This document shows, one piece after another, positions 5,433 through 23,485 of a stretch of DNA of 64,000 nt; within the stretch, counting starts at the first letter, position 1; each line of letters starts with the position of its first letter. Origin of the DNA: Bacillota bacterium. Lineage in GTDB: Bacteria; Bacillota; Clostridia; DUPQ01. The stretch is taken from positions 118,138-182,137 of the forward strand of contig JAKJBR010000001.1 in NCBI GenBank assembly GCA_022706885.1, written 5' to 3'. Both the position numbers and the translations under genes were made by a program. The notes below the pieces were generated by a model. The model did not search any database. It worked only from the letters and a program-made list of their open reading frames with translations, and had not been told where the DNA came from.

Positions 5433-5639
5433 AATAAACCTCTTAACAATGAATATATCCGAGATTACTTAGTTTGTAAAGTGTTCTTTATACTATTTAA
5501 TGCACAGTAATTTAACTTCAATCTAAGCATTAAGTCAGTTATATTAAAGATTGAACAGCAAGTTTTGCTAATAGATTTGTGATATTAACAGCTAAACTTG
5601 TTAATACAGCCGTTCTATATTTAACAGTTAATTGATAGA

Positions 5640-5997: not shown

Positions 5998-7257
5998 TCA
6001 CCCCTTATCTATTATACATGATTCACTTTTTTGTGAAGATACTTTACTTTTCTTTTTGCCTTTTCTGCGAGGCTTTCTGATCTTTTCTTCAATTCCTATC
6101 TCTCCCGCCTTCTTAAGCGCTATCTTTGCGAATATCGGTCCGCTTGTTTCATATATGAGAACGGAGAACATGATAATGGTATTGATGGCTACCGCATAAT
6201 CGGGAAGTTGCTGACGCACCAGTACCATAAGTCCTATGGATATGCCGCCTTGCGGAAGCAGTCCCAAACCCAGATATTTTCTTACAGCAGGTTCGGCTTT
6301 CACCATGGCTGCACCTGCCCAGGCACCCGCTATTTTTCCTAAACCTCTTGCCAGAACATAGGCAATACCCATCAGACCGACCGTTTTAAGTATCGAAAGA
6401 TCCAAGCTTGCACCGGCAAGTGTAAAGAAGAGTATATATATCGGCGCCGCAAAGCTGTTTACCGAATCAAATACTCTTATGGAGTTTTGCTGTATATTAA
6501 CTAAAACCGTACCCATAACTATACAGGTAAGCAGCGGAGACATATTCAAAAGAAGAGAGATTCCGGTCGCTACACCTATGGCTGCCAATGCTATTGCCTG
6601 AAGTTCGTCTCTTCCCGAGGCTTTTTGTGAAAGCCAGGATAATAATAAGCCCAACACGAAACCGATACCGACAGATCCCGCTATTTCAATAAGAGGACCG
6701 AATATCATGGAAGCAACCGATAACTGCTGCTTATATGTAACAATCTTAGCAACCGACAAGGCAATACCGAATACCACTATTCCGAAGACATCATCAAGAG
6801 CTACTACGGGGAGAATGGTTCTTGTGAGCGGACCCTTGGCGTTATACTGCTTCATTACCAATAATGTTGCTGCAGGAGCGGTAGCAGCCGACATGGAAGC
6901 AATTACTATACTGAATGCAAAAGGTTGTCTGAAAACAAAGAATAAAATGCAAAAAACCAATAACACCGCACCTATTACTTCCATAAGAGTGATTATGAAA
7001 ATGGATTTACCTATCTTTTTCATTTCTTTCAAGACAAATTCATTTCCTATACTGAAAGCAATAGCTGCCAATGCCAGTTCGTTTATAATGTTGAAGGATT
7101 GAACATCCGCGGGGCTAATAAAGTTAAAGAATGAAGGACCTAAAAGCAACCCGAATACCAGATAGCCGGAAACATTAGGCAACTTGACCAGTCCGGCTAC
7201 CCTTCCTCCTATTATTCCTACGACAAGAACAATAGCAATCTTCAGCAAAACATTCAT
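5998..7257 (-). CDS. cation:proton antiporter (CPA/Na+-H+ exchanger family)
   Basis: 419 aa polytopic membrane protein; N-terminal GYLVFGLLLGP motif typical of CPA1/CPA2 exchangers. Confidence 0.8.
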   Translation of the reverse strand: MNVLLKIAIVLVVGIIGGRVAGLVKLPNVSGYLVFGLLLGPSFFNFISPADVQSFNIINELALAAIAFSIGNEFVLKEMKKIGKSIFIITLMEVIGAVLLVFCILFFVFRQPFAFSIVIASMSAATAPAATLLVMKQYNAKGPLTRTILPVVALDDVFGIVVFGIALSVAKIVTYKQQLSVASMIFGPLIEIAGSVGIGFVLGLLLSWLSQKASGRDELQAIALAAIGVATGISLLLNMSPLLTCIVMGTVLVNIQQNSIRVFDSVNSFAAPIYILFFTLAGASLDLSILKTVGLMGIAYVLARGLGKIAGAWAGAAMVKAEPAVRKYLGLGLLPQGGISIGLMVLVRQQLPDYAVAINTIIMFSVLIYETSGPIFAKIALKKAGEIGIEEKIRKPRRKGKKKSKVSSQKSESCIIDKG

Positions 7258-7329: not shown

Positions 7330-7480
7330 AAAAATCATCATGTACTACATTGCTTGGTGCAATCCTATGGGATTAGCTGTCGGGTTTGGGCCACCAAGCT
7401 GCCCATCTTATCCAGATTCACCCCTTTTCGGTTGGTTCCCCCACTATCAAAACAGATATTCGGATATCCATAAAATAGTA
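7330..7480 (-). ncRNA. candidate cyclic-di-AMP (ydaO/kimA-type) riboswitch in the 5' leader of the CPA antiporter gene
   Basis: Minus-strand reading contains GUGGGGGAACCA ... AAGGGGUGAAUC ... ACCCGACAGCUAAUCC, resembling the conserved GGGGGA-CCA / GGGG-GAAUC / ACCCG-CCGA blocks of ydaO-type c-di-AMP riboswitches as I recall them; leader is 330 nt; boundaries approximate. Confidence 0.45.
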
Positions 7481-10042: not shown

Positions 10043-10833
10043 TGATAAAATTTTGTCCTTTATTCAGCGGAAGCAGCGGGAACGCTATTTATCTTAAATA
10101 TAGGGATACATCGATACTGATAGATGCGGGGTTGTCTAAAAGAAAGATTACCCAGGCTATAGCGGATATCGGTGAAGATGCATCGGAATTGGATGCAATA
10201 TTAATAACGCATGAACACTACGACCATATATCCGGTATAGGTGTTATGGAAAGAGGATATAACATACCTATATATGCAAATACCTCTACGTGGAAAGAAA
10301 TGCCGAGAATATTCGGAATAATAAGAGAGGAAAACAAGAAAACATTTGAAACGGGAAAGAGATTTATTATTAAAGATATAGAGATAATGCCTTTTTCCAT
10401 ACCGCATGATGCTGCCGATCCGGTAGGATTCAGTTTCTTTTTAGACTCAAAGAAAGTCACGTCAGTGACGGATATAGGACATCTTACTGAAAGCATAGCG
10501 GAAAACATCAAAGGCAGTGACCTGCTGTTATTGGAGTCCAATCATGATTTGGATATGCTCATAAACGGTCCCTATCCATGGCCGTTGAAGAAAAGAATAA
10601 GGGGAGAATTCGGTCATTTATGCAACAAGGACTGCGGAGATATAGTTGTTAAGTTCATAGAGTTCGGGCTAAAGACCGTTGTGCTCGGACATATGAGTGC
10701 ACAGAACAATGTGCCTCAGCTGGCATATGATACCGTAAGGAAGTGCATAGAAGAGAACGGTTATGTAATCGGCAAAGACATAAATCTGGATGTAGCTGTA
10801 AGGGAAGGCAATAACAGAGTGTTTTTATTATGA
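10042..10833 (+). CDS. MBL-fold metallo-hydrolase (YycJ/WalJ-like)
   Basis: ORF 10021..10833 trimmed to ATG 10042 (MIKFCPLFSGSSGNA); HxHxDH motif ITHEHYDHISG. Confidence 0.75.
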   Translation: MIKFCPLFSGSSGNAIYLKYRDTSILIDAGLSKRKITQAIADIGEDASELDAILITHEHYDHISGIGVMERGYNIPIYANTSTWKEMPRIFGIIREENKKTFETGKRFIIKDIEIMPFSIPHDAADPVGFSFFLDSKKVTSVTDIGHLTESIAENIKGSDLLLLESNHDLDMLINGPYPWPLKKRIRGEFGHLCNKDCGDIVVKFIEFGLKTVVLGHMSAQNNVPQLAYDTVRKCIEENGYVIGKDINLDVAVREGNNRVFLL

Positions 10834-11288
10834 AGATAAATATAATCTGTGTGGGAAAATTAAAAGAAAAATATCTAATTGAAGCACAAGACGAGTATAT
10901 TAAAAGACTGTCAAGGTTTTGTGATGTGAAGATAACGGAAGTAAGTGATGAAAAAGACGATATTCCCGATGCCATGGAAAAAGAAGGAGCAAGAATACTG
11001 TCAAAAATTCAACCCAAAGACTATGTGATATGTCTTGCGATAGAAGGCATGAAATTTGACAGTGAAGCTTTTTCCGAGAAAATCATATCTGTATTTGATT
11101 TATCAAACCCCGTTATTGATTTCGTGATAGGAGGAAGCCTCGGTCTTTCGGACAGTGTAAAGAAAAGAGCGGATATGCTTCTGTCCTTTTCCGACATGAC
11201 TTTTCCTCACCGGTTGATGAGAGTAATATTGTTAGAACAGCTATTCAGAGCATTCAAGATAGCAAACAATGAGAGTTATCATAAGTAG
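10830..11288 (+). CDS. rlmH: 23S rRNA (pseudouridine1915-N3)-methyltransferase, SPOUT family
   Basis: 152 aa; MKINIICVGKLKE...YIKR N-terminus and C-terminal FPHRLMRVILLEQLFRA characteristic of RlmH; ATGA overlap with upstream MBL gene. Confidence 0.85.
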   Translation: MKINIICVGKLKEKYLIEAQDEYIKRLSRFCDVKITEVSDEKDDIPDAMEKEGARILSKIQPKDYVICLAIEGMKFDSEAFSEKIISVFDLSNPVIDFVIGGSLGLSDSVKKRADMLLSFSDMTFPHRLMRVILLEQLFRAFKIANNESYHK

Positions 11289-11301: not shown

Positions 11302-11439
11302 ATGTTTAAACAAAGACCGCAGAATCAAAAGGATGAGAGCAAAGTATTTGAAGACTTATTATCAGCAAGTGAAAGCAGTATGGATTTCTGGTTTAATGAT
11401 GTAGATGATGAGCAGTGGAATGATGAGAAAAACGATTAA
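11302..11439 (+). CDS. candidate small acidic protein (45 aa, MFKQRPQNQKDESKVFEDLLSASESSMDFWFNDVDDEQWNDEKND); 3' half is part of repeat A
   Basis: ORF below track threshold found by eye; RBS-like GAAGGA upstream; its 3' portion plus 21 nt downstream recurs at 22357..22422. Confidence 0.3.
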   Translation: MFKQRPQNQKDESKVFEDLLSASESSMDFWFNDVDDEQWNDEKND

Positions 11440-11460
11440 ATAACTATTTACACTTCTTGA
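11380..11460. repeat. direct repeat copy A (atggatttctggtttaatga...ataactatttacacttcttga), left boundary of GC-rich island
   Basis: about 90% identical to 22357..22422 apart from a 15-nt indel (cagtggaatgatgag). Confidence 0.8.
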
Positions 11461-11552
11461 GATACGGTTTGTCAAGGGGATTTTTTACCCCTTACATTAA
11501 AACGCAAGAAGTATACAGTTGAGTATTTCGGTTCAATCTGACTCCAATGGTT

Positions 11553-12074
11553 TCATTCATGTGATCTCAACGCTTCCTTCAGCATTGAATGGATGTTTAA
11601 TGATTCCGGCAGATCATTCATGCCGCGATGCACCCATTCTTCTATAAGTCCGGAGATCATACCTGCGAGAAGAGCCCGTATATAGGCCACATTGTCATCT
11701 TCATCTGGTGAGGGGCCACAGCAATAGAATATGTGATCACGTAATAAATAAGTCAAGTTATTCTGATTAAGAAGGAGCAGCAGTTCCTTCTGTTTTTTAA
11801 ATTCATCCAACAGTGACGGCCAGAAGTTTTCATAGAATTCCTTTTCCGGCTTTTGGGAAAACTCCTGCCACCATTCATTGGTACAGGCGGCGAGATACTT
11901 AACAAGAATATCCTGTTTGGAGTTGTAGTTTCTATAAAAAGAAACTCTGCCGACACAGGCTTTTTCACAAAGCTCCGTAACGGTGATTTTGTCAAATGAC
12001 TTAGTTTTCATGAGGCCAATCAAGGCACTGGTAAGGCTTTCAAGTACAAATTCGTGTGATGTTACTGCTTTCAT
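11553..12074 (-). CDS. TetR/AcrR-family transcriptional regulator
   Basis: ORF 11553..12164 trimmed to ATG 12074 (MKAVTSHEFVLESL...KITVTELCEKACVGRVSFYRNY HTH); GC-rich codon usage. Confidence 0.7.
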   Translation of the reverse strand: MKAVTSHEFVLESLTSALIGLMKTKSFDKITVTELCEKACVGRVSFYRNYNSKQDILVKYLAACTNEWWQEFSQKPEKEFYENFWPSLLDEFKKQKELLLLLNQNNLTYLLRDHIFYCCGPSPDEDDNVAYIRALLAGMISGLIEEWVHRGMNDLPESLNIHSMLKEALRSHE

Positions 12075-12225
12075 AGTGATACAAATTCCCCGTTTTGTTT
12101 CTTTTTTTGACGAAGCAATCCTTTCTCTTGATTTCAGGAAAAAGGATTGATACACTTGCACCATGAAACAAATGTATCAGTTGGCTGGGCGCTTGTCAAG
12201 CATAATATAATATCGGGAGGTTTCT

Positions 12226-13707
12226 ATGAGAAGCAAGGAGAGCAAACCAAAAATCGATAAGTCTTTATGGCTTACAACAAAAAGCGAAAGAATCAACTAC
12301 TATGTTGGCGATTTGGGGCGCACATTGGAGGGCTATATCGTCACGGCGTTTATGACGCTCTTTCTGTTATTTCAGGGAATCAACCTGATCTCGATTTCCG
12401 CGGCAATCCTGGTTGTCAAGGTCATCGATGCGCTCGACGACGTAATTTTCGGTTTCTTGATCGACAAACTCAATATCAAAAAGAGCCGACTTTTTGGAAA
12501 AATAGCCGGTGAAGGCAAATACTTGCCTTGGTACCGCGCGACCTTCTTCCTGTTCCCGATTTTTACGGTCCTTTTCTTTCTTATGCCGCAGGGCGTGCCA
12601 AACGCCGTGAAGATCGGTTGGTTTATGGTGACCTATCTTCTGTATGATATCAGTTATACGCTTGTTGAGGTCCCCATGAACTCAATGATTGTGTCGCTGA
12701 CGGACAACACCGAGGAGCGTAACTCAATCCTTCAGACGAAAGGCATCATCGGCGGCATTGCGACGGTTTTAGCCGGCATCATCTGGACATTCCTTATTAG
12801 CGAACATGTAGGAATCTCCATAAGACTGGTTGCGATTGTTTCGTCTGTCATTTTCTTCTTCATGATGCTACCGCTGGCGACAAAAGTGAAGGAACACAAT
12901 ACCGAACTGAAAAACACCGAGGACGAAAAGAGCACGGAGCGTTACAATTTCCGTGATATGATTAAATGCGTAAAGACAAACAAATACATGGCTGTCATCC
13001 TTCTCAGCACGCTTATTATGGGGGCTCTGGCGACGGGCAGTTCTCTCGGAACCTATGCGTCATACTATCTGTACGGTGACTCGATGATTCTTATCATTCC
13101 AATCGCGATCGCCTTTATCCCTCAGCTGATTGCCCAGCTCAATACCGATAAGTTATGCCGCAAATTCGGAAAGAAAAAGGTTTATATGGTCTGCGGGTTG
13201 ACCGCAGCTCTAATCTACGGTTCTATTTTCTTTGCCGGTTACAACAATTTTGTCGTTATTACAATCCTGCTGGTGCTGCAGGCTGCGCCGGGCAATGTTG
13301 CCAATATCGCAAAGACTTTTTTCACTCCGGATACGATTGAGTATACGCGCTATAAGACCGGAAAAGACTGCTCGGGGATTTTCTTCTCCCTCAATGCGTT
13401 CGTTAACAAGTTAACGACAAGCATCGCTTCTTCTTTGGGCGTGTTCATCCTGGGGCTTTCCGAATGGATTACTGTTGAGGCAGACAGCTTTGAGGAGCTT
13501 GCCGAGCTCAATGTAGTGCAGACCCAGAGTGCACTGGACACTCTTTGGATTGTCTTTATGCTGATTCCCGCACTTGGCACACTGCTGAGCGTTGTGGTTA
13601 TGGCATTCTATAAGCTGAAGGATGACGACGCAAAACTTATGGCTCAATGTAATGCCGGTGAGATTAGCCGCGAGGAATGCGAGACCAGATTGTCGCGGAA
13701 ATACTGA
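12226..13707 (+). CDS. glycoside-pentoside-hexuronide (GPH) family cation symporter (MFS superfamily, MelB-like)
   Basis: 493 aa, 12 predicted TM segments; N-terminal YYVGDLG...VIDALDDVIFGFLIDK motif typical of GPH sugar symporters. Confidence 0.75.
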   Translation: MRSKESKPKIDKSLWLTTKSERINYYVGDLGRTLEGYIVTAFMTLFLLFQGINLISISAAILVVKVIDALDDVIFGFLIDKLNIKKSRLFGKIAGEGKYLPWYRATFFLFPIFTVLFFLMPQGVPNAVKIGWFMVTYLLYDISYTLVEVPMNSMIVSLTDNTEERNSILQTKGIIGGIATVLAGIIWTFLISEHVGISIRLVAIVSSVIFFFMMLPLATKVKEHNTELKNTEDEKSTERYNFRDMIKCVKTNKYMAVILLSTLIMGALATGSSLGTYASYYLYGDSMILIIPIAIAFIPQLIAQLNTDKLCRKFGKKKVYMVCGLTAALIYGSIFFAGYNNFVVITILLVLQAAPGNVANIAKTFFTPDTIEYTRYKTGKDCSGIFFSLNAFVNKLTTSIASSLGVFILGLSEWITVEADSFEELAELNVVQTQSALDTLWIVFMLIPALGTLLSVVVMAFYKLKDDDAKLMAQCNAGEISREECETRLSRKY

Positions 13708-13725
13708 AAAACAGGAGACTGTATC

Positions 13726-15312
13726 ATGCTTGAAAGAGACAACGTCAGATTCTTTGATATGACTTCTGTCTCTCCGACGCAGGGAATCGAACGGAGGGCA
13801 ACGGGTCAGTATGTCAAAGCCGGCCTTGCACGGCTGTTTCCCGGTGAGGTGTTCAGAAATATATGTGTCAGTTTTAACGGGAGCGGGGAGTATCATCCAA
13901 AGGTTTCTCTGATTCAGCGTATGTTCGGCGGCGGAAAAAAGATTGAAGGCCTACCCGCATATTATGAAGTGGAACTGGAGCATCTGACCGGTAGCCATAC
14001 TGAGACGCTCATTGTTTGGTCGCCTGCAGCCTGGAACGGTCGTTTTGCGGGAACCGCCGGAGGAGGGACCGGTATCGGAGGACGAAGTTATCTGACAAAG
14101 CCGGATAACGCCCAGCGTGGTTTGACGGTCCCCTTTGCCGTCATGAACGGTTTTACTGCAGCGACGATGTTCGCGGGAAACAATGACGGCGGGTTCCACG
14201 ATTACACCATCGACCCGAAAACCGGAACGCTCAACCGTGAGTTGTACGAAAACTGGAGACTTCGGAGCACTCATAATATGACTGTTTTCGGAAAAGCTAT
14301 AGCAGAGCTTCTCCATGATCGCCCTGTCAGATGGACCTATATGAACGGCGGCTCCGGAGGCGGAAGACAATCGCTCATGGAAGTCCAGAATTATCCGAAA
14401 GACTATAACGGCATCTGGGCATCCTGCCCCGCAATCAACTGGCAGAAGTTGATGGTCTCCGGTTTTTGGGCTCAGACGCTCATGAACGAGTATGGAATCA
14501 CATTTTCAGCTAAAAAGAATCAGTTTTTCATTGACGCCGTTCATGAAGCAAACGGCGGTGCGGACAAGTATTATCGCTTGGAAAAGATCCCTGAATTTGA
14601 TTTTTATTCCTGTGTGGGGAAAAATATTGGTAGCGATTCCATTACAGAAGCCGATGCAAGATTCATGACGGAACTTTGCCGTGGCCCGAGAAAGGCTGAC
14701 GGCAGTTTCCTTTGGTACGGTTTTGCACCCGGCGTGAAGAATTGGCAGTGTGTGATTCCTATCGGCACCTATTATTATCCGATGCCATGGTCGCGGCACG
14801 TAAAGCCTTTTTTTCTCGCCCCAATCTGCGCCAGATGGATCACGGAAACACCGGGTCAGAAGTTTGATGGCATGAAGATTAGGGAATTCACCGAGCTTTT
14901 TGAAGAAGGCGTCAGAAAGTTTTCGGATAACCTTGGTGATAATCCTGCAATCGATGCATTTGTGAATGCCGGCGGCAAACTCATAATCGACCACGGTATG
15001 GACGACCCGCTGATACCGGTGGAAGGGACGCTGGACTATTACGGGAAGCTTCTCACGCATTTTGGTTCGCAGAGTGCGTTGGACCGCTTTATGAGACTAT
15101 ACATAACCCCCGGTGACAGCCATGGTAATTGCTTCGGCAACGGACCCGGAATTACCGAAAAAGATGGCATGCTTGCTCTGATGAAGTGGGTCGAAGAGGG
15201 AAAGGCTCCGGAAGAGATACGAAAAGTCAGAGTGGGCAGAAAGAACGGGGAGACGCTGGAGGAAAGCAGCCAGAGTCCTTACCGGGACGAAAGGCATAAC
15301 AATGAAGACTGA
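13726..15312 (+). CDS. tannase/feruloyl-esterase family hydrolase (no signal peptide)
   Basis: 528 aa; nucleophile motif YMNGGSGGGRQSLMEVQNYPKDYNGIWASCPA matches the GCSTGGRQGLMEAQRYP...G...PA signature of the tannase/feruloyl esterase family. Confidence 0.7.
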   Translation: MLERDNVRFFDMTSVSPTQGIERRATGQYVKAGLARLFPGEVFRNICVSFNGSGEYHPKVSLIQRMFGGGKKIEGLPAYYEVELEHLTGSHTETLIVWSPAAWNGRFAGTAGGGTGIGGRSYLTKPDNAQRGLTVPFAVMNGFTAATMFAGNNDGGFHDYTIDPKTGTLNRELYENWRLRSTHNMTVFGKAIAELLHDRPVRWTYMNGGSGGGRQSLMEVQNYPKDYNGIWASCPAINWQKLMVSGFWAQTLMNEYGITFSAKKNQFFIDAVHEANGGADKYYRLEKIPEFDFYSCVGKNIGSDSITEADARFMTELCRGPRKADGSFLWYGFAPGVKNWQCVIPIGTYYYPMPWSRHVKPFFLAPICARWITETPGQKFDGMKIREFTELFEEGVRKFSDNLGDNPAIDAFVNAGGKLIIDHGMDDPLIPVEGTLDYYGKLLTHFGSQSALDRFMRLYITPGDSHGNCFGNGPGITEKDGMLALMKWVEEGKAPEEIRKVRVGRKNGETLEESSQSPYRDERHNNED

Positions 15313-16495
15313 AACAATCAATCAGGTGATGCAAGGCTATATTGATTCACATGAACTAGCCGGTGGAGCGTTGCATGTGTTTTCAGAAGCTGAAACGATT
15401 TTCCGCGGAAAATGGGGATTAAGCGATATTGAAGCAACGAGATCCGTGGAATATGACAGTATTTTCAGACTCATGTCGATGACAAAGCCGATCGTAGCTG
15501 CCGCAGTGATGATTTGTGCAGAGAGGGGACTTATCGACATAGATGATCCTGTTTCGCATTATCTGCCGGAATTCGCGGATATGCAGGTGAATCATGATCC
15601 GAAATATGCCAACGGACCGGACGTACTTAAAAGAATACCTCTGCTTATTCCGTTTTTCAATATCAGTAAAGTGAAAACAAAACCTGCCTCCCGCGACATC
15701 ACAGTCCGCGATCTCTTAAGCCATTCCTCGGGAATGCAGCAGGGAACGGTCAGTCTGCTGAGCCTTCTGAAAGGTCTTCCGCAGTTCGGATCGCTCAGGG
15801 AAGAAGTTTCGTATTTTGCTGCTCAACCCCTGGATTTTGATCCGGGAACCGGAACGGGTTATTCACCTCTCGCCGGTTTTGATGTGCTTGGATATCTCAT
15901 TGAATGTGTGAGTGGCACACGGCTTGAAGGTTTTGTTCGCACAGAAATCTGCGATCCTCTCGAAATGTTTGATACAGGCTTTTTCCTATCAGAAGAGAGA
16001 CAGAAAAGGCTTGTCAAGGTATATAAAAGGCATGCTGGCAGCCTGAAAGATGTCACCGGAACAAAGAATGATGTGGCAGGAGCCATGCACCAGAAGGCCA
16101 TCTCTTTTGAACATGGCTGTGGCGGAATGTATTCCACTCTTGATGATTATAGCCATTTTGCACAGATGCTGCTCTGTGAAGGTTCCTATAAAGGCAGACG
16201 GATTCTGCAGCCGGAAACGGTTCGAATGATGCGAAGTGAAGCGCCTCTCGTCCATCTTGAGCCCGAACCCGGCTTTGTATGGGGACTGGGAATGAAGATT
16301 CGTCAGAATCCTGAAAAGGGCGGCAGTCCTGCGACAGCCGGAACCTACGGCTGGAGCGGGGCTTTTGGCACGCACTTCTTCATCAGCCCTATTGACAGGC
16401 TGGGCGTTGTATTTATGACGAACCGCGCCGATTTGGAAGGGTCAGGGTCCTATATCAGCAAGAGAATCGAAGAACTGGTTTTTGAAGGGGACTGA
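15302..16495 (+). CDS. beta-lactamase-family serine hydrolase (class C-like esterase)
   Basis: 397 aa; S-x-x-K motif SMTKPIVAAAV; overall PBP/beta-lactamase fold pattern. Confidence 0.7.
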   Translation: MKTETINQVMQGYIDSHELAGGALHVFSEAETIFRGKWGLSDIEATRSVEYDSIFRLMSMTKPIVAAAVMICAERGLIDIDDPVSHYLPEFADMQVNHDPKYANGPDVLKRIPLLIPFFNISKVKTKPASRDITVRDLLSHSSGMQQGTVSLLSLLKGLPQFGSLREEVSYFAAQPLDFDPGTGTGYSPLAGFDVLGYLIECVSGTRLEGFVRTEICDPLEMFDTGFFLSEERQKRLVKVYKRHAGSLKDVTGTKNDVAGAMHQKAISFEHGCGGMYSTLDDYSHFAQMLLCEGSYKGRRILQPETVRMMRSEAPLVHLEPEPGFVWGLGMKIRQNPEKGGSPATAGTYGWSGAFGTHFFISPIDRLGVVFMTNRADLEGSGSYISKRIEELVFEGD

Positions 16496-16500
16496 GAACT

Positions 16501-17556
16501 ATGATTACACCAGAAACAACAATAAAAGAAATCCGCAGCATACTGCAGGACAATCTGTTCAGCCAGTTGATCTATGACCTTTCAGAAAGGGGAGCCGGCA
16601 GATTCTCTGACGAAAACAGAACCCTGAAAGATATTCAGGTTGCAGATCCGGCATGGAATGCGGACGATATGGTTTTCGGTCTGAACACACTGTGCCGTAA
16701 TGCTGCAAGAGGAAGGGTTTTATATGATGTATACAGGTCTGATGAGACTGCTGCGTGCCCCGGAAAAGCGAATGTTAAACTGGTCCATTTTCCGGCAGAA
16801 ACTGCATGCAACTACGAAAAAGACTGCGTACGAAGAACGCTGATACTCGCCTCGGGCGGCGCTTACGGTGCAGTCTGCAATCTGCCCGAGGCATTTCCCG
16901 CAGCGGCAGAAGCTGCAGCGCTTGGAATAGACTGCCTTTGTCTGACATATCGGGTCGGGGCTTTGGCACCGCTTTTCCCAAAGCCGATGGAGGATCTGGC
17001 AGCCGCGATTCGTTTCCTTTTCAGCAATGAACAGAATCTTGATGTTAGCATGAAGCATTACGCAGTCGGGGGCTTTTCCGCGGGGGGACATCTTGCTGCC
17101 TGCGGGGGCATTAAGGAACTGGGATATCGGAAATTCAACCTTCCTGCGCCAGAAGCAGTGCTCCTTGCTTATCCCCTGCTTAATGTTTGGAAAGCCTTGG
17201 AACAGTTGCCGGAACCGTATCGCAAGCTTATGCTTAAAGGTCTTCTCGGGTCTGGAGTTGATGAATCTTATTGTGGACCTTATAACGTTAATCAGAATAT
17301 TGACTGCGACTATCCGCCGTGTTTTATTGTTCACGCAAGAGATGACGAGACGGTGGATTGTGAACTCAGCTCAGCTTTTGCTCGTGCTCTCACAACAGCA
17401 GATGTCCCCTGTGTTATAGAAAAACCTGAACACGGCGGGCATGGTTTTGGCAGAGGCGGCAAAACAGAAGCCGAAGGATGGATTAAAAGAGCAATTACAT
17501 TTTGGAAGGAACAGAGACAGAGACATGAAACTGTATCATTTACGCGTAAATCATAG
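16501..17556 (+). CDS. alpha/beta-hydrolase fold esterase
   Basis: 351 aa; GGFSAGGHLA nucleophile elbow, HARDDETVD and HGGHGFG triad elements. Confidence 0.65.
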   Translation: MITPETTIKEIRSILQDNLFSQLIYDLSERGAGRFSDENRTLKDIQVADPAWNADDMVFGLNTLCRNAARGRVLYDVYRSDETAACPGKANVKLVHFPAETACNYEKDCVRRTLILASGGAYGAVCNLPEAFPAAAEAAALGIDCLCLTYRVGALAPLFPKPMEDLAAAIRFLFSNEQNLDVSMKHYAVGGFSAGGHLAACGGIKELGYRKFNLPAPEAVLLAYPLLNVWKALEQLPEPYRKLMLKGLLGSGVDESYCGPYNVNQNIDCDYPPCFIVHARDDETVDCELSSAFARALTTADVPCVIEKPEHGGHGFGRGGKTEAEGWIKRAITFWKEQRQRHETVSFTRKS

Positions 17557-20134
17557 AACAAATCCCTGCGTTGACGGGGATATTGAGTTTTCCTGGCGCA
17601 TCAGTTCTGAACACAAGAACATTGTGCAGCGTTCTTACCGAATCCTTGTGGAAGGCGAGGAAGGAACGATGTGGGACAGCGGTACAGTGGAGAGCAGGCG
17701 GCAGAGTTTTGTCGCATATGACGGACCGAAGCTTCCCTCAAAATCTGAATATCGGTATACTGTGACCGTGTGTACCGCTGACGGTGATTCCTCCGGTGCA
17801 TCCGGACGTTTTTATACAGGTCTTGACCTTGCAGACTGGAAAGCATGCTGGGTTGAATCCACCTTTATGAGAAATCCGCATCAGATGTTCTCTGACGGTA
17901 TCGAAAACCCGGTGCTCTCTTTTACGAGAGGTTTTGAAATCCGCGGGAAACTTCGCTCAGCCGTCATGTATGCCACCTGTTATGGCGTTTATCATCTGAT
18001 AATCAACGGAGAAAGAGCGGACGACAGGGAATTTGCTCCGGAGTTCACCGCTTACAGCAAGCTTTTGTATTACCAAAGATACGATGTGTCCGGGCTGTTG
18101 CATACGGGAAAAAACAAGCTGGAGATGCTGGTGGGAGACGGCTGGTACTTCAACAGCCAGACCGTACCTGTCGGCTGCGATCACGAAAAGCCCGCAATCC
18201 TGTATCAATTGGAACTTGAATATGCAGATGGAACCCGCGAGACTGTTTTCAGCGACGGCAGTGAGGAGTGTCGCCAGACAAATATCCTGTATTCGGATCT
18301 GTTCGTCGGAGAAAAAATCGATCTGACAAAGCCTTATTCGGAGCCCTTGAGACCGGTGCTCTGTGATTATCCCTTCGATATTCTCCGGGCTCAGGCACTT
18401 GATCCGGTTAGGGCTGTTGAAATCTTCTCAGTTAAGAAGGTCATTCAAAGCCCAAAGGGCGAACTTATTTATGATTTCGGTCAGGTAATTGCCGGCAGAT
18501 GCCGAGTCTTGCTACGGGAAGAACGCGGAACGGAAGTGCGCATCCATCATACGGAAGTTCTGGATAAAGATGGCAATTATTTTGCGGCGCTATCTTCCCG
18601 CCAGCGCGACACCGTAATCTGCAGCGGGGAAAAGACTCTCTATGAACCAATCTTTACCTTTCACGGCTTTCGCTACATCATGATCGAAGGCGCAAGAAAT
18701 ATCCGCCCTGAAGATGTGACTGCCGTCCTTCTTTCCACGGAAAAGGAGAACAAAGGCAGATTCAATTGCAGCAATCCGAAGCTGAACCGGCTGTATCAAA
18801 ACATTCGGTATTCCCAGAGAAACAATATGATGTCAATCCCGACAGACTGCCCGCAGCGCGAAAAAGCAGGATGGACAGGTGATGTTCTGGTCTATAATGC
18901 CGCAAGCATGCTGAACGAAGAAATGACACCTTTCTATGAAAGCTGGCTTTCCAGTCTCCTTGCAGATCAGCAGGAAAGCGGGGCGGTACCGATTACCTGC
19001 CCCTCGACAAAAATGTATGACTTCATGCTTAGAAAGATTAGCCGCGAGTATGATAAGTCAAAGCCGGCCAAGGGGCTGGAGGATATTCTGCCCGCGGAAG
19101 GCGAATCCGCAGCAGGAGGAGAACTGCCTTCGGTTGCCGGGTGGAGCGATGTGATTATAGAACTTCCGTACAGTATGTACAGGCTGACAGGCAATGACCT
19201 GATTCTTAAGAAATGTCTGCCCGCTATGAAGAAATATGCTGATCAGGTAATCCGCACAGCGGCGACCCGCAGAGGCGGCGCTTCACTTGATGAAAACGAT
19301 CGGTACCTCTGGAATACCGGTTTCCATTTCGGAGAATGGCTTGTTCCGGGGAAGGAAAAGCCCGGATTTGAAGCCTGTAAGGAAACGACCTGGTATATCG
19401 CTCCTTTTTACGCATTCCGTTCGGTAAACCTGCTGGCAGAAATCTGTGAAAAGCTTGGCGACGAAAAGAGCGCTGCGTATTACGGAAGTATCGCCCGAAA
19501 AATGAAAGCAGCAATCGAGGCAGAAGTGCTTCCTCTGCAACACGAATATGCAGACTATATGGGACGATACATCCTTGCCCTGGCATTTGAATTGGTTGAC
19601 GGAGACCTGGAAAAGGAATACGCCGGGAAACTCATTGAATTGATTCATTCAAACGATTATCGTATAGGAACCGGTTTTCTTGCAACGCCCTACATTCTGA
19701 AAGTACTGGACAGCATCGGCCGCCACGATCTGGCATTGAAGGTCCTGATGAACCCGAACTGCCCGGGCTGGCTCTATGAAGTCAGCATGGGAGCTACAAC
19801 GATATGGGAAAGCTGGAGTGCCGTAGCGCCTGACGGAACGCCGCAAAAGATCAGCTTTGACCATTATGCTTTCGGTATTGTGGATGAATATTTCTTTTCC
19901 GTTCTTGCGGGAGTCAGACCGCTTGAGCCGGGTTTTGCCAGATTTGAGGTCAGCCCGGACCGTGTGATTGGTCTGGACCGGCTGAAACGGGAGTTTATCT
20001 GCGAGGCCGGCCTTATTTCTGTCGAATATACAGACTCCGTTCTGACGGTAACAGTTCCGCCCAATACCCGTGCAGTGATCAAATGGAACGGAGAAACAAA
20101 GGAGGTTGGGAGTGGTACATGGAGATTCGAATAA
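17525..20134 (+). CDS. alpha-L-rhamnosidase (GH78)
   Basis: ORF 17441..20134; start placed at ATG 17525 (MKLYHLRVNH); length about 870 aa and conserved PTDCPQREKAGWTGD motif typical of bacterial GH78. Confidence 0.8.
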   Translation: MKLYHLRVNHRTNPCVDGDIEFSWRISSEHKNIVQRSYRILVEGEEGTMWDSGTVESRRQSFVAYDGPKLPSKSEYRYTVTVCTADGDSSGASGRFYTGLDLADWKACWVESTFMRNPHQMFSDGIENPVLSFTRGFEIRGKLRSAVMYATCYGVYHLIINGERADDREFAPEFTAYSKLLYYQRYDVSGLLHTGKNKLEMLVGDGWYFNSQTVPVGCDHEKPAILYQLELEYADGTRETVFSDGSEECRQTNILYSDLFVGEKIDLTKPYSEPLRPVLCDYPFDILRAQALDPVRAVEIFSVKKVIQSPKGELIYDFGQVIAGRCRVLLREERGTEVRIHHTEVLDKDGNYFAALSSRQRDTVICSGEKTLYEPIFTFHGFRYIMIEGARNIRPEDVTAVLLSTEKENKGRFNCSNPKLNRLYQNIRYSQRNNMMSIPTDCPQREKAGWTGDVLVYNAASMLNEEMTPFYESWLSSLLADQQESGAVPITCPSTKMYDFMLRKISREYDKSKPAKGLEDILPAEGESAAGGELPSVAGWSDVIIELPYSMYRLTGNDLILKKCLPAMKKYADQVIRTAATRRGGASLDENDRYLWNTGFHFGEWLVPGKEKPGFEACKETTWYIAPFYAFRSVNLLAEICEKLGDEKSAAYYGSIARKMKAAIEAEVLPLQHEYADYMGRYILALAFELVDGDLEKEYAGKLIELIHSNDYRIGTGFLATPYILKVLDSIGRHDLALKVLMNPNCPGWLYEVSMGATTIWESWSAVAPDGTPQKISFDHYAFGIVDEYFFSVLAGVRPLEPGFARFEVSPDRVIGLDRLKREFICEAGLISVEYTDSVLTVTVPPNTRAVIKWNGETKEVGSGTWRFE

Positions 20135-20135
20135 T

Positions 20136-21266
20136 ATGAAAAATCATAGTATCCGACCCGGAAAGCCTTTCCTCGACACGGAAGGAATGCGCATTCAGGC
20201 CCACGGGGGGAGTATCTTTTTCGATGCTGAAACCGAGACATATTATCTGTATGGAGAAAACAAGGAATTCTCTGTTCCCGGTAGCGGTATCTGGACTTGG
20301 GGAGTTCGTGCCTATGCGTCAAGGGACTTCTACAACTGGGAGGATAAGGGATTGATAGTTGAGCCTGTGCTTGACGATCCGTTGTCACCGCTCAATCCCC
20401 GGACGGCATGTTTGGATCGGCCACATATCCTGTTTAACCAAAAGACGGAGAAATATGTCTGCTGGATGAAGATCATGCACAGAGATGACAGCAGGCGGCA
20501 GACGGTTACGATAGCGGTCGCAGACAGCTTTTTAGGACCGTATTCGATTGTACAGAGCGGGGTATCTCCGCTTGGCATGAATGCCGGGGATTTTGATCTT
20601 GTCGATGATGAGAACGGAAAAGCTTATTATTACTTTGAACGAGTCCATTCAGAGCTGATTTGCGCGGAGTTGACAGCAGATTACACAGATGTGACAGATG
20701 TCTGCTCCCATCATTTCCCGCATCCGTATCCGCCTTTTGTTCGGGAAGCGCCGGCACACTTTAAGCGAAATGGGCTGCACTATCTTATTACATCCGGAAC
20801 AACCGGGTATTTTCCAAACCGCAGCGAAGTTGCAGTGTCGGAAAGCTGGCATGGCCCTTTTACTGTTCTCGGAGATCCACATCCCGGCGATCCGACCGGC
20901 ACATCCTTTCACTCGCAGATTTCCTCGGTGTTCAAGATGCCTGGAAAGAAGAATCTGTATGTGGCGTTGGCAGACCGCTGGATGCCGAATGCGATGGAAA
21001 TACCGGCAGCCTTCTGTGAGGAGGTTTTTGAGGGCTTCTTTTCGGGCCGAGTCCCGCTCAGCGAAGGCGAGCATTTCCGGGAATCTCTGATCAGGAAATA
21101 CGGGCTACAAGGTTACCGGAGTATTCTTGTGCAGAATGATACGGACACTTCCGTCGCAGACTATGTCTGGCTTCCGCTGAGGTTTGAGGAACCGGCTCCG
21201 CAGCACCCGAATGGAATGATTTTCATAGACTGGCTGGATGAATGGAGAATTGAAGATTACTCATAA
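20136..21266 (+). CDS. GH43-like five-bladed beta-propeller glycoside hydrolase (arabinofuranosidase/xylosidase-like), cytoplasmic
   Basis: ORF 20106..21266 trimmed to ATG 20136; sequence pattern compatible with GH43 fold; family assignment tentative. Confidence 0.5.
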   Translation: MKNHSIRPGKPFLDTEGMRIQAHGGSIFFDAETETYYLYGENKEFSVPGSGIWTWGVRAYASRDFYNWEDKGLIVEPVLDDPLSPLNPRTACLDRPHILFNQKTEKYVCWMKIMHRDDSRRQTVTIAVADSFLGPYSIVQSGVSPLGMNAGDFDLVDDENGKAYYYFERVHSELICAELTADYTDVTDVCSHHFPHPYPPFVREAPAHFKRNGLHYLITSGTTGYFPNRSEVAVSESWHGPFTVLGDPHPGDPTGTSFHSQISSVFKMPGKKNLYVALADRWMPNAMEIPAAFCEEVFEGFFSGRVPLSEGEHFRESLIRKYGLQGYRSILVQNDTDTSVADYVWLPLRFEEPAPQHPNGMIFIDWLDEWRIEDYS

Positions 21267-21294
21267 GAATTATTTATAAAAGGAGACGATGTAA

Positions 21295-22092
21295 TTGGAA
21301 TGTACTTTGTTTTACACGGAACTGTCAAGAGGGATATATCGGATTTCCGACAGTCTTCACGGACCGAATTCTGACGGATTTTCAGACGCACCGGGCAGGG
21401 CAACACAGAATTCATATTTGATACAAGGACAGGAAAGGGCTGCTTTAATTGATTTGGCAGTAGATACGCCTGACTTGTTTTCCTATGCTTGTCAGCTTAC
21501 AGGCCTTCCGACACAGGTACTGTTAACCCATGGGCATCCGGATCATGTTTACAATCTTGAGTCGGTTGGTGAAGCATGGCTTCATCCTGATGATTATGAT
21601 CTGGTCCTGAAAGGGATTCCGGGAATATGTTTTCCCATACATAATGTCGTACTGAATCCGCTGAAGGACAGGCAGAAGATTGATCTGGGTGAGCGAATCC
21701 TTGAGGTTATCCATATGCCCGGGCATACACTGGGGAGCGTTCTGTTTTGGGACAAACTGTCTGGTTTTTTGTTCAGCGGGGATTCCTGTTCAAGACGATT
21801 GCTCTACGGCCTAACGCCTACGGTCCCGTTGGATGAACATTGTAAAAAAATTGCCGGGCTTGCAGAGCTTCCCATTAATCATATTTACACAGCACATGAC
21901 CGATGCGGTCTGCCCAAGGCACACTTGCTGCGGAGTTGTGAACTTATCCGACAGGAACTTCCAAAGTCGGCAACAACAGTTATCATACCAGGAATAGGCA
22001 TTATGCGAAATCTCCGATGGGGAGATGAAAATACTCTGGATTACTTTGACATGGCGGTTGAAGAGTCCTATGTTGAAGGATTGTTGAAATAA
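21295..22092 (+). CDS. MBL-fold metallo-hydrolase
   Basis: 265 aa; HxHxDH motif LLTHGHPDHV, later HMPGHT. Confidence 0.7.
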   Translation: MECTLFYTELSRGIYRISDSLHGPNSDGFSDAPGRATQNSYLIQGQERAALIDLAVDTPDLFSYACQLTGLPTQVLLTHGHPDHVYNLESVGEAWLHPDDYDLVLKGIPGICFPIHNVVLNPLKDRQKIDLGERILEVIHMPGHTLGSVLFWDKLSGFLFSGDSCSRRLLYGLTPTVPLDEHCKKIAGLAELPINHIYTAHDRCGLPKAHLLRSCELIRQELPKSATTVIIPGIGIMRNLRWGDENTLDYFDMAVEESYVEGLLK

Positions 22093-22188
22093 GAAAAAGA
22101 CAATACTCATTTCTTACAACTGCTTTCCAATTCACCACAAATGAGCCACAGTCATATGTATTTGGTGGTACAAACCACCCTTTACATA

Positions 22189-22358
22189 TTAGCTCTTGAA
22201 AACCCATTCTCTTTGAACATGGAAAGAAACAAAGAAAAGTATTGTATACACCCCTGTTTTAATCAATGTGATTATTATTTCTCTTTCGGCAGGGATAATC
22301 AAGGAAAGTAAAGTTACAAGACCTGCCGATGTAAGCATAACGGATACGGATAATACAT
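22189..22358 (-). pseudogene. duplicated fragment (about 50 codons) of the C-terminal GtrA-like region of the downstream glycosyltransferase
   Basis: ORF 22189..22470 encodes VLSVSVMLTSAGLVTLLSLIIPAEREIIITLIKTGVYTILFFVSFHVQREWVFK, about 90% identical to the true C-terminus of ORF 22406..23485; about 158-nt tandem copy. Confidence 0.55.
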
Positions 22359-22581
22359 GGATTTTTGGTTTAATGACATAGATGATGAGAAAAACGGTTA
22401 AATAACTATTTACACTTCTTGAATACCCATTCTCTTTGAACATGGAAAGAAACAAAGAATAATATTGCATCCACCCCTATTTTAATCAATGTGATTATTA
22501 TTTCTTTTTCGGCAGGGATAATCAAGGAAAGTAAAGTTACAAGACCTGCCGATGCAAGCATAACGGATACGGATAATACAT
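22201..22581. repeat. tandem duplication of about 158 nt (22201..22358 and 22423..22581) separated by repeat copy B
   Basis: Direct comparison: acccattctctttgaacatggaaagaaacaaagaa...gatacggataatacat present twice at about 92% identity. Confidence 0.8.
22357..22422. repeat. direct repeat copy B (atggatttttggtttaatgacatagatgatgag-aaaaacggttaaataactatttacacttcttga), right side of island
   Basis: Matches 11380..11460; contains the stop codon of the GT gene. Confidence 0.8.
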
Positions 22582-23485
22582 AGTATTTGATAAGACACTT
22601 TTTATAATCACACTTATGTTTGAAAACCGAACTCTTATTGAAATTGAAATTAAAAAACGAGGATAACGCTCTGGCTATTACCGTACTTATAAGAATCCTT
22701 GTATTCTCTACATAATTTGCAAATATCAACAAAGACACATAGAAAACAATGTTGTCCAAAAGGAAAGATATTATTGAACTTAGCATGAACTTGAATATGA
22801 GCCTGTATATCCTGAAAGCATCTCGAACCGCCTTGAAATGCGACCCTACATTTTTATCCTCATATACGGTAGTTATTTCCACTTCCTTAAACGGAATACC
22901 TTCGGGTTTCATCTCTAAAAGCATATTGGTTTCATATTCAAAACGATCACCCTCAACTGAAAGAAGGAAAGGAATAAGTTTTACGGGAAATACTCTCAAT
23001 CCGGTTTGTGTGTCGTTAATATTTATTCCGCATCCCGTTTTGAAAACAAAGGAAGTTATCTTGTTTCCCAAAAAGCTTTTCGGGGGAACATCCGGTTGAT
23101 GGAAATTCCTTGCTCCCAATATAACCGTTTTGTCATCGGTCATGTGCTGCGAACATTTCAATATGTCTTCAGGAAGATGCTGTCCGTCCGCATCCGCTGT
23201 GACTACACCTTTAATATCTTTGTTCCGCTGCTGAATATATGAAAAGGCTGTTTTAAGAGCAGCTCCTTTTCCTTTATTCACTTCATGCTTTAACAGAGTG
23301 CACTGTTCCGTAGAAGATACTTCATCGAATATACCGTCATACTCCGGACCGCTTCCGTCATTTACCACTATAATATCGGAAAAGCCTTGTTCAATTAATC
23401 CCGAAACCGTCGTAAGAAGTTTCTGTGAGGGGTTTAATGACGGTATAACTGCGGTTATTCCAAGACCGTTATCTTTAAATGTCAT
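22406..23485 (-). CDS. family-2 glycosyltransferase with C-terminal GtrA-like membrane domain (polyprenol-phosphate sugar synthase-like)
   Basis: 359 aa; GT2 motifs AVIPSLNPS, VVNDGSGPEY, TADADGQH; C-terminal four-TM GtrA-like region. Confidence 0.8.
   Translation of the reverse strand: MTFKDNGLGITAVIPSLNPSQKLLTTVSGLIEQGFSDIIVVNDGSGPEYDGIFDEVSSTEQCTLLKHEVNKGKGAALKTAFSYIQQRNKDIKGVVTADADGQHLPEDILKCSQHMTDDKTVILGARNFHQPDVPPKSFLGNKITSFVFKTGCGININDTQTGLRVFPVKLIPFLLSVEGDRFEYETNMLLEMKPEGIPFKEVEITTVYEDKNVGSHFKAVRDAFRIYRLIFKFMLSSIISFLLDNIVFYVSLLIFANYVENTRILISTVIARALSSFFNFNFNKSSVFKHKCDYKKCLIKYYVLSVSVMLASAGLVTLLSLIIPAEKEIIITLIKIGVDAILFFVSFHVQREWVFKKCK

Follow-up and report, generated by a model that had tools for sequence, protein, structure and literature searches.

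Introduction

Among the described ways in which DNA enters a genome with no recombinase of its own are Campbell-type single-crossover integration, in which a fragment first re-circularises, and homology-facilitated illegitimate recombination (HFIR), a name that reportedly goes with the work of de Vries and Wackernagel in 2002 and of Prudhomme et al. in 2002. Of 60 E. coli integrants obtained with one-arm fragments, 56 had the homologous locus duplicated over 109-950 bp, because re-circularised molecules had entered by a single crossover (Amarir-Bouhram et al. 2011, PMC3240628). According to the same study, true HFIR was rarer, with joints of 0-10 bp homology, and classical HFIR usually deletes rather than duplicates recipient DNA (PMC3240628). 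An HFIR-like mechanism has also been proposed for displacement in Rhs/CDI/T6SS effector arrays (PMC5361080).

The locus described here is a 10.7-kb island between two convergent genes, rlmH with a small acidic ORF (S) on the left and a glycosyltransferase gene (GT) on the right. Like the products of single-crossover integration and HFIR, the island has no element-encoded recombinase, target homology on one side, one novel joint in the range of 0-10 bp (here AT), and a duplication in the range of 109-950 bp (here ~225-240 bp) (PMC3240628). Unlike them, the event is read from its product, the insert is 10.7 kb versus ~1-2 kb in the experiments (PMC3240628), and the route requires that a first insertion at TCTTGA had already taken place in another member of the clade. 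As in the Rhs/CDI/T6SS orphan 3' fragments (PMC5361080), incoming DNA has left a displaced, decaying 3' fragment beside an intact copy; unlike in those arrays, the locus is not a toxin/immunity array, there is one displacement, and the duplication extends across the ends of two convergent genes.

Recombinase-less genomic islets at core-gene hotspots are comparable in that they consist of an atypical, self-contained block of regulator plus operon, with other cargo in the gap in sister lineages, and are fixed in one species; the locus here differs in that its junctions are known to the nucleotide and combine a 6-bp repeat with a polymorphic tandem duplication of the target, both flanking genes being left whole. 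Integrase-type genomic islands, ICEs and prophages share with it the direct repeats on both sides, the insertion at a gene 3' end and the foreign GC content, but here an integrase is lacking, the right boundary and the long repeat do not coincide, the insertion is not at a tRNA gene and no excision products were seen. The locus is thus a well-resolved recombinase-less genomic islet, ordinary though neatly documented, which overturns nothing in current understanding.

Layout of the locus and its junctions

On the plus strand of the window, i.e., the whole 64-kb stretch of DNA analyzed here, the order is rlmH, S, A, the island, X1, B, X2 and the rest of GT, where A and B are the two copies of one imperfect direct repeat and X1 and X2 those of another (Table 1).

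Table 1. Features of the island and its flanks (positions counted from the first nucleotide of the window)
Feature	Position	Strand	Evidence or remark
rlmH, SPOUT methyltransferase, conserved left flank	10830..11288	+	PF02590, E=3.8e-54; syntenic in L021, L022, L023
ORF S, small, acidic, 45 aa	11302..11439	+	translation; C-terminal tail family; relB synteny; DNA homology to relB 3' ends
Repeat copy A	11380..11460	+	S codons 27-45, stop, 4-nt spacer, last 17 nt of GT frame
Left TCTTGA hexamer, junction repeat	11455..11460		A/B homology ends here
Inserted island, 10,733 bp	11461..22193	+	absent from syntenic site in L021, L022, L023; composition
Hairpin AAGGGG-ATTTTTT-ACCCCTT	11474..11493		13 nt inside left end, downstream of minus-strand tetR
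TetR-family regulator, 173 aa by gene finders (ORF extends to 12164)	11553..12074	-	PF00440, E=1.1e-4, just under curated cutoff; host-like GC 40%
MFS_2 glycoside-type transporter	12226..13707	+	PF13347, E=1.2e-47
Tannase/feruloyl esterase family protein	13726..15312	+	PF07519, E=6.5e-43
Beta-lactamase-fold serine hydrolase	15302..16495	+	PF00144, E=7.5e-64
BD-FAE / alpha-beta hydrolase esterase	16501..17556	+	PF20434, E=2.5e-16
GH78 alpha-L-rhamnosidase, 869 aa as called	17525..20134	+	PF17389, E=1.3e-80, plus four more rhamnosidase domains
GH43 glycoside hydrolase	20112..21266	+	PF04616, E=1.3e-15
Metallo-beta-lactamase-fold (MBL) protein	21295..22092	+	PF00753, E=7.3e-15
Imperfect palindrome ATATGTA..GGTGGT acaa ACCACC..TACATAT, 36 nt	22154..22189		ends 4 nt before right island edge
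X1, relic copy of GT 3' end (~52 codons)	22194..22358	-	reads ...REWVFKS-stop instead of FKKCK-stop
Right TCTTGA hexamer	22194..22199		X1 vs B-X2 homology begins here
Repeat copy B	22357..22422	+	relic S 3' end fused to real GT tail
GT, bifunctional family-2 glycosyltransferase / GtrA protein, 359 aa, conserved right flank	22406..23485	-	PF00535 + PF04138
X2, functional counterpart of X1, within intact GT	22417..22588	-	alignment with X1

The first-pass annotation of this DNA had described A and B as imperfect direct repeats with a 15-nt deletion in the right copy, the left copy lying in the 3' end of a small acidic ORF, and the alignment agrees: A (81 nt) and B (66 nt) are true repeats with one mismatch in the 41-nt 3' part and three in the 33-nt 5' part, and A spans the last 20 codons of S. 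Neither part has a third copy elsewhere in the 64-kb window (0 matches expected from 100 shuffles), i.e., the repeat did not prove to be a common dispersed element. The 15 nt absent from B are the stretch between two ATGATGAG octamers in A, a layout typical of a slippage deletion; an undeleted 81-nt B was found in two other contigs (L002 and L006). The GT portion of A (11444-11460) comprises, on the minus strand, the stop, K, C, K, K and two nucleotides of Phe355, and CTATTTACACTTCTTGA at the end of A is the reverse complement of the terminal codons of GT (K-K-C-K-stop) plus these two Phe355 bases.

X1 and X2, ~160 nt long and 95% identical, correspond to the 3' end of the minus-strand GT, X1 being located between the island and B. 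This pair, the TCTTGA hexamer as the true junction repeat and the GT end codons inside A had been overlooked at first reading. Because A/B homology stops and X1/B-X2 homology starts at TCTTGA, the island was delimited to the 10,733 bp between two perfect hexamers; a third copy of TCTTGA is located at 22417-22422. The island splits the Phe355 codon of GT, which precedes the stop by four codons, and the novel joint between X1 and B has a 2-nt microhomology, AT (22357-22358). The repeats do bracket a GC-rich interval, as had been described, but X1 separates B from the island.

When the island is removed, a head-to-tail duplication remains, with a unit of 225-240 bp in which the 4-nt spacer links the 3' ends of S and GT. 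There are two copies of this target segment (~60 terminal nt of S, the spacer and ~175 terminal nt of GT), and the island is located in unit 1; A and B are best read as the S-derived halves of this tandem target duplication. The outer genes are intact: A completes S, and X2 together with the tail inside B completes GT. Since the two genes converge with stops 4 nt apart and the target is duplicated, both are complete when read inward, and X1 and the S-derived part of B are surplus, decaying inner copies. An ORF running through X1 and B (93 aa in the window, 75 aa according to gene finders) was rejected as a gene, because it has no family match and carries frameshifts in other strains.

Empty site in related genomes and composition of the island

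Related genomes were retrieved with the GT protein as query. In Firmicutes bacterium ADurb.Bin146 (L021), whose GT is 80% identical, the neighbourhood is syntenic (p451-NAGPA-p472-GT; S-rlmH-MBL-NUDIX-YhhN) and S adjoins GT through one continuous ...TTTACACTTCTTAAAAACCCAGTCTC..., with neither island nor duplication, which is the arrangement of small ORF, single repeat and GT 3' end that had been predicted for the empty site. In two more distant relatives, L022 (GT 63%) and L023 (GT 56%), rlmH and GT converge directly. The relatives carrying rlmH (with or without S) and GT end to end, the island was considered to be a gain in the lineage of the window. The outgroups without it comprise four lineages (L021/L130, L128, L022 and L023) and cover three depths. 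No lineage between 80 and 99% GT identity was found among the GT homologues, and no island-bearing donor allele without the duplication was found among the GT homologues or cluster members.

The GC content of the island is 48.1% versus 40.0% in the rest of the window (48.9% in the operon part, 40.4% at the TetR end), so the higher GC reported between the copies stands, though not its value of about 55%, which came from a local hand-counted sample. The island genes also have a higher GC3, 0.52 versus 0.41 +/- 0.035 in 41 other ORFs (Mann-Whitney p=1e-4). Judging from these values, the island is in all likelihood horizontally acquired and compositionally foreign.

Both ends of the island are structured. 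The hairpin said to follow copy A exists, though it is modest (-10.6/-13.0 kcal/mol, z -1.9 for -10.6); it has no T-run and the terminator scan gave no call, i.e., it is not a canonical terminator. The palindrome at the right end is strong, its folding energies being -18.0 kcal/mol (plus strand, z -3.6) and -23.1 kcal/mol (minus strand, z -4.7). As the two hairpins occupy the expected terminator positions of tetR and of the operon, the insert was presumed to be one complete regulatory unit.

Variation within the species

The conspecific genomes in NCBI are those of Firmicutes bacterium ADurb.Bin099. The island was found next to S and next to GT in every conspecific contig of sufficient length, and both junction sequences are identical across all of them, covering more than 20 independent assemblies (JGI, ENA, Logan, NCBI). 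The protein accessions of S and GT are offset by 9 in seven MAGs, corresponding to eight genes between them, and an exact rlmH look-up returned three contigs, all with the island (3/3). Diversity within the island is 0.4-1.5%, similar to that of the flanks. These universal identical junctions, together with island diversity that matches the flanks, indicate that the island is older than the sampled diversity and fixed, as the first-pass annotation had supposed from its appearance.

More than 40 conspecific contigs yielded neither an excised nor an empty allele, and a pattern scan of metagenome contigs for such alleles gave 0 matches in a collection where a TetR-based scan showed only 2 filled contigs. 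Intermediate alleles, with the island but no duplication or the duplication but no island, were absent from the contigs read. Likewise, no single-copy GT ending in FKS-stop was found among the GT homologues or cluster members, the sole FKS-ending ORF (P0265) being an X1 relic downstream of an intact GT.

The array itself is variable. Most contigs have two units; in L006 there are three, with three copies of X and two of B, and the middle one is a hybrid. X1 carries a +CG frameshift in most strains, a 1-nt deletion in L008 and an X2-like mosaic in L126, and the 15-nt indel of B is polymorphic among strains. Polarised with L021, derived changes number 6 in X1 versus 2 in X2, and 2 plus the deletion in B versus 1 in A, counts that are small and rest on a distant outgroup. 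This pattern fits inner copies that would be unconstrained relics on which gene conversion and unequal crossing-over have acted. A crossover between A and B could still remove the island exactly.

Small ORF S and the rlmH-GT gap

S has no match in Pfam, NCBIfam or PDB searches. In an exhaustive representative search, about 20 small proteins were found to share its C-terminal motif SESS(L/M)DFWxNxxDDExWN, and their N-termini are either RelB/DinJ (P0122, TIGR02384, 59.9 bits) or weakly DUF2281-like. In L130, the same gap holds a relB gene (167 aa, ending ...SESSLDFWFNDIDDEEWNNV-stop) that overlaps a pemK/mazF toxin gene (PF02452), whose stop adjoins the GT tail; relB is alone in the gap in L128 and L129, and only a 45-47-aa tail ORF is present in L021 and in the window. 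In addition, the 3' half of S shows DNA homology to relB 3' ends. On the evidence of the representative search and synteny, from which its identity was drawn, S is most probably what is left of the 3' part of a RelB/DinJ-type antitoxin gene, with SESSMDFWFNDVDDEQWN as the putative toxin-binding tail. It consists of the 45-aa C-terminal tail only, with no DNA-binding N-domain and no toxin gene after it, and was therefore regarded as a remnant rather than a member of a RelB/DinJ-PemK(MazF) module. Within the species S is polymorphic, including one truncated form.

Seen across these genomes, the gap appears to display a decay series of the relB-pemK module. The GT tree (window,(L128,(L021,L130))) conflicts with the distribution of S-type versus relB-type alleles, which suggests that alleles may have been exchanged at this hotspot. 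The rlmH-GT gap is a gene-flux hotspot between convergent core genes, where the cargo in sister lineages comprises relB-pemK, MarR-like and APH-like genes.

Insertion mechanism and alternative explanations

We consider, with a probability of roughly 0.7, that the island was inserted by recombinase-independent microhomology joining together with RecA-type homologous recombination, and that it is now fixed in the species. The locus has features of homology-assisted illegitimate integration, namely a target-homologous duplication beside the insert and one joint that shares only AT (22356-22359), as well as features of a tandem segmental duplication, namely head-to-tail units, copy-number polymorphism and hybrid units. 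It also has a short repeat like a target-site duplication, the TCTTGA at both junctions, which is equally expected from microhomology-mediated joining.

Three routes may be proposed. In route (i), a fragment of A, island and X1 from an island-bearing allele would re-circularise at AT and enter an empty allele by a single crossover within A. In route (ii), which is HFIR-like, a one-sided homologous exchange between island-bearing and empty alleles would be combined with an illegitimate AT joint at the other end. Either of them would yield S-A-island-X1-B-X2-GT in one step and restore the FKKCK tail of GT; the basic FKK(C/S)K tail is kept in four lineages, and its restoration by these two routes may offer a selective reason for the duplication. 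In route (iii), a tandem duplication would come first and a microhomology-mediated insertion would follow, the duplication being the only neutral landing pad because the stops of S and GT are 4 nt apart. A duplication-first intermediate would read S 5' part ... TTTACACTTCTTGAAAACCCATTC and then X1-B-X2, and an insertion-first intermediate would read ...TTAGCTCTTGAAAACCC...GGATAATACATAGTATTTGATAAG straight into GT, with GT ending in FKS-stop. All three routes would give the same product, and the duplication-first order is equally compatible with it. After insertion, the array would be reshaped by unequal crossing-over and gene conversion. The target duplication would thus be a way to keep both flanking genes intact where there is no neutral intergenic space.

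Site-specific integration, with A/B or the TCTTGA cores as attL and attR and an integrase that was lost or acted in trans, is unlikely. Direct repeats surround a compositionally foreign block, the insertion is at a gene 3' end, and the identical core, at 6 bp, is about as long as the overlap region of a tyrosine recombinase. The toxin-antitoxin remnants at the locus would also agree with it, as toxin-antitoxin modules often travel with mobile elements. However, B does not lie at the island boundary, since X1 intervenes, and the earlier reading of A and B as att sites is not supported, B being ~160 nt from the right edge while the true junctions share only the 6 bp of TCTTGA. In agreement with the first-pass annotation, no integrase or transposase was found by Pfam in the eight island ORFs; nor was an excisionase or IS, and there are no mobility domains within 10 kb on either side. 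Moreover, the cores have no inverted repeats of the recombinase-binding type around them, the island ends are not significantly similar to each other and have no further occurrence in the DNA retrieved for comparison, and no excised or empty form was found in the more than 40 conspecific contigs. Neither a tRNA nor a tmRNA gene served as target, none being present in the window and no Rfam match occurring near the site. An Xer/dif (IMEX) element was rejected for want of a dif-like site near the junctions, the best match in the window having 9 mismatches (at 5455). Repeat-mediated capture, which had been named beside att sites, comes closer; the repeat is nevertheless a consequence or companion of the insertion, with no sign of a pre-existing capture device. 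Flanking direct repeats should therefore not automatically be taken as att sites.

Transposition would make the island a composite or trans-mobilised transposon, with TCTTGA as a 6-bp target-site duplication and the tandem duplication unrelated to it. It is quite improbable, even though the perfect 6-bp direct repeat lies exactly at both junctions, a 6-nt overlap at a blunt insertion would occur by chance at about 1e-3 (as we infer), and hairpins stand near both ends. A transposase or tyrosine recombinase acting in trans would also leave a perfect 6-bp repeat at both junctions. Against it, there is no transposase or IS, and no terminal inverted repeats were found: for the 80-nt ends, 433/2000 shuffles reached the score of the best inverted match, and 133/2000 that of the best direct match (ACCCYTTACAT, near both ends), which is chance level. 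The two hairpins differ in sequence, unlike paired recognition sites, and are located where terminators are expected. Site-specific integration and transposition would both require trans-acting enzymes; they would account for the hexamer, though not for the displacement of B, and all their other defining features are absent.

A recombinase-less operon cassette mobilised in trans, for which the end hairpins (4-13 nt inside) and TCTTGA would serve as recognition and crossover sites of a host or helper enzyme that works on hairpins or single strands and the duplication would be a by-product, seems very unlikely. The perfect 6-bp repeat and the structure at both ends are compatible with it, but the hairpins are dissimilar and there is no second copy in the DNA retrieved. 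We know of no enzyme for such a hairpin-ended operon cassette.

An ancestral island that the relatives have lost by deletion, with repeats left over from an unrelated local duplication, is highly improbable. The outgroup genomes available are few and the island is fixed in the species; however, rlmH (with S or relB, where present) adjoins GT in all four island-free outgroup lineages, GC and GC3 are foreign, and GT end codons are stranded to the left of the island (11444-11460). Together with the duplicated TCTTGA, these stranded codons indicate that a once-continuous sequence was split. An assembly artefact, i.e., a chimeric join at the repeat in a metagenome-assembled genome, hardly deserves credence, because the same junctions occur in the independent assemblies, which come from several projects and assemblers and include contigs of 113-264 kb and one of 2.0 Mb, and the several short-read contigs that end exactly at A or X1 (L016, L019, L020, L010) are explained by the identity of A and B over 32 nt in most strains.

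Gene content and putative function of the island

The island is filled by eight ORFs, all with metabolic or regulatory Pfam matches, which leave no unassigned coding space. They form a self-contained module in which the TetR-family regulator is divergent from a seven-gene transporter/esterase/rhamnosidase/GH43 operon. According to the domain content, we infer that the putative substrates are plant rhamnosylated or esterified phenolics or oligosaccharides. A small-genome (~2 Mb) anaerobic-digester Firmicute would thus have gained a complete polyphenol-glycoside/ester utilization module with no mobile-element machinery.

Megablast of the entire island against PLSDB gave no match, i.e., no plasmid copy was found, and the TetR protein did not point to a donor, its closest non-self relative being only 35% identical. 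A similar operon type (MFS_2-tannase-GH78-beta-lactamase fold-BD-FAE, with GH43/MBL nearby) is present in other Firmicutes metagenome contigs at 63-66% identity. The Lachnospiraceae-like contigs among them were rejected as donor, because the nearest non-self tannase is only 66% identical and the operon is rearranged, so that they represent the module type rather than the source. These similar modules have AraC regulators, and one of their proteins is named from Roseburia sp. NSJ-9.

Gene flux between rlmH and the glycosyltransferase gene

Comparison of the window with three related-lineage contigs that lack the island (L021, L128, L130) identifies the gap between rlmH and GT, the convergent glycosyltransferase/GtrA gene, as a hotspot of gene flux, in which the cargo is, depending on the lineage, a TA module, a MarR-like gene, an APH-like gene, or the 10.7-kb island. 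S-type and relB-type alleles are distributed among the lineages in a way that is incongruent with the GT tree, which suggests that alleles have been exchanged at this gap through flanking homology.

The small acidic ORF S behind rlmH is what remains of the 3' end of a RelB/DinJ-type antitoxin gene, and the same site is occupied by relB genes in two other lineages (table). A representative protein search showed that the C-terminal tail SESS(L/M)DFWxNxxDDExWN is common to about 20 small proteins; this tail has neither a Pfam model of its own nor a solved structure. Within the species, S carries several amino-acid polymorphisms, and the S-type protein P0280, from an ENA contig of 4465 bp, is a form of 37 aa terminating after ...NDVDDE, because of a premature stop or because the contig ends there. 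The short form and the polymorphisms jointly suggest relaxed constraint on S.

To the right of the island, the tandem units [X+B], each joining a copy of the GT 3' end (X) to a repeat copy with the S 3' end (B), vary within the species. There are two or three units, the 15-nt deletion is present in some strains and absent in others, X1 (the relic GT copy) contains frameshifts, and mosaic units are present. This polymorphism indicates that unequal crossing-over and gene conversion are still ongoing in the array.

Features of the window and of compared contigs
Feature	Sequence	Position	Strand	Remark
Cation transporter, Na+/H+-exchanger type	window	5998-7257	-	riboswitch RF00379 upstream
c-di-AMP riboswitch, RF00379	window	7346-7475	-	66.8 bits
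ORF S	window	11302-11439	+
Island TetR end	window	11461-12225
Imperfect palindrome	window	22154-22189		36 nt, strong; ends 4 nt inside right island end
[X+B] array	L006	11081-11635
[X+B] array	L002	11081-11412
[X+B] array	L126	1719-2033
relB-pemK(mazF)	L130	4082-4937		sister lineage, same site as S
relB without toxin gene	L128	4093-4599		another lineage, same site as S

Island composition and related modules

The GC content of the island TetR end is host-like (40.4%), versus 48.9% in the operon. Outside the species, no relative of the TetR protein exceeds 35% identity. Regulator and operon may have separate origins. The palindrome (minus strand, -23.1 kcal/mol, z -4.7) is probably the operon terminator. 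It is also notable for its location at the extreme edge of the insert.

A recurrent module of MFS_2, tannase, GH78 rhamnosidase, beta-lactamase-fold hydrolase, and BD-FAE esterase, accompanied by GH3/GH43/MBL and AraC regulators, was found in other Firmicutes (L101-L106), which are gut Lachnospiraceae-like contigs, some of them Roseburia sp. NSJ-9-like. This module is a candidate for a conserved pathway acting on plant phenolics that are rhamnosylated or esterified.

Riboswitch locus

Elsewhere in the window, a P-II-like gene comes next after the cation transporter, and the order of riboswitch, transporter, and P-II-like gene is an ordinary arrangement.
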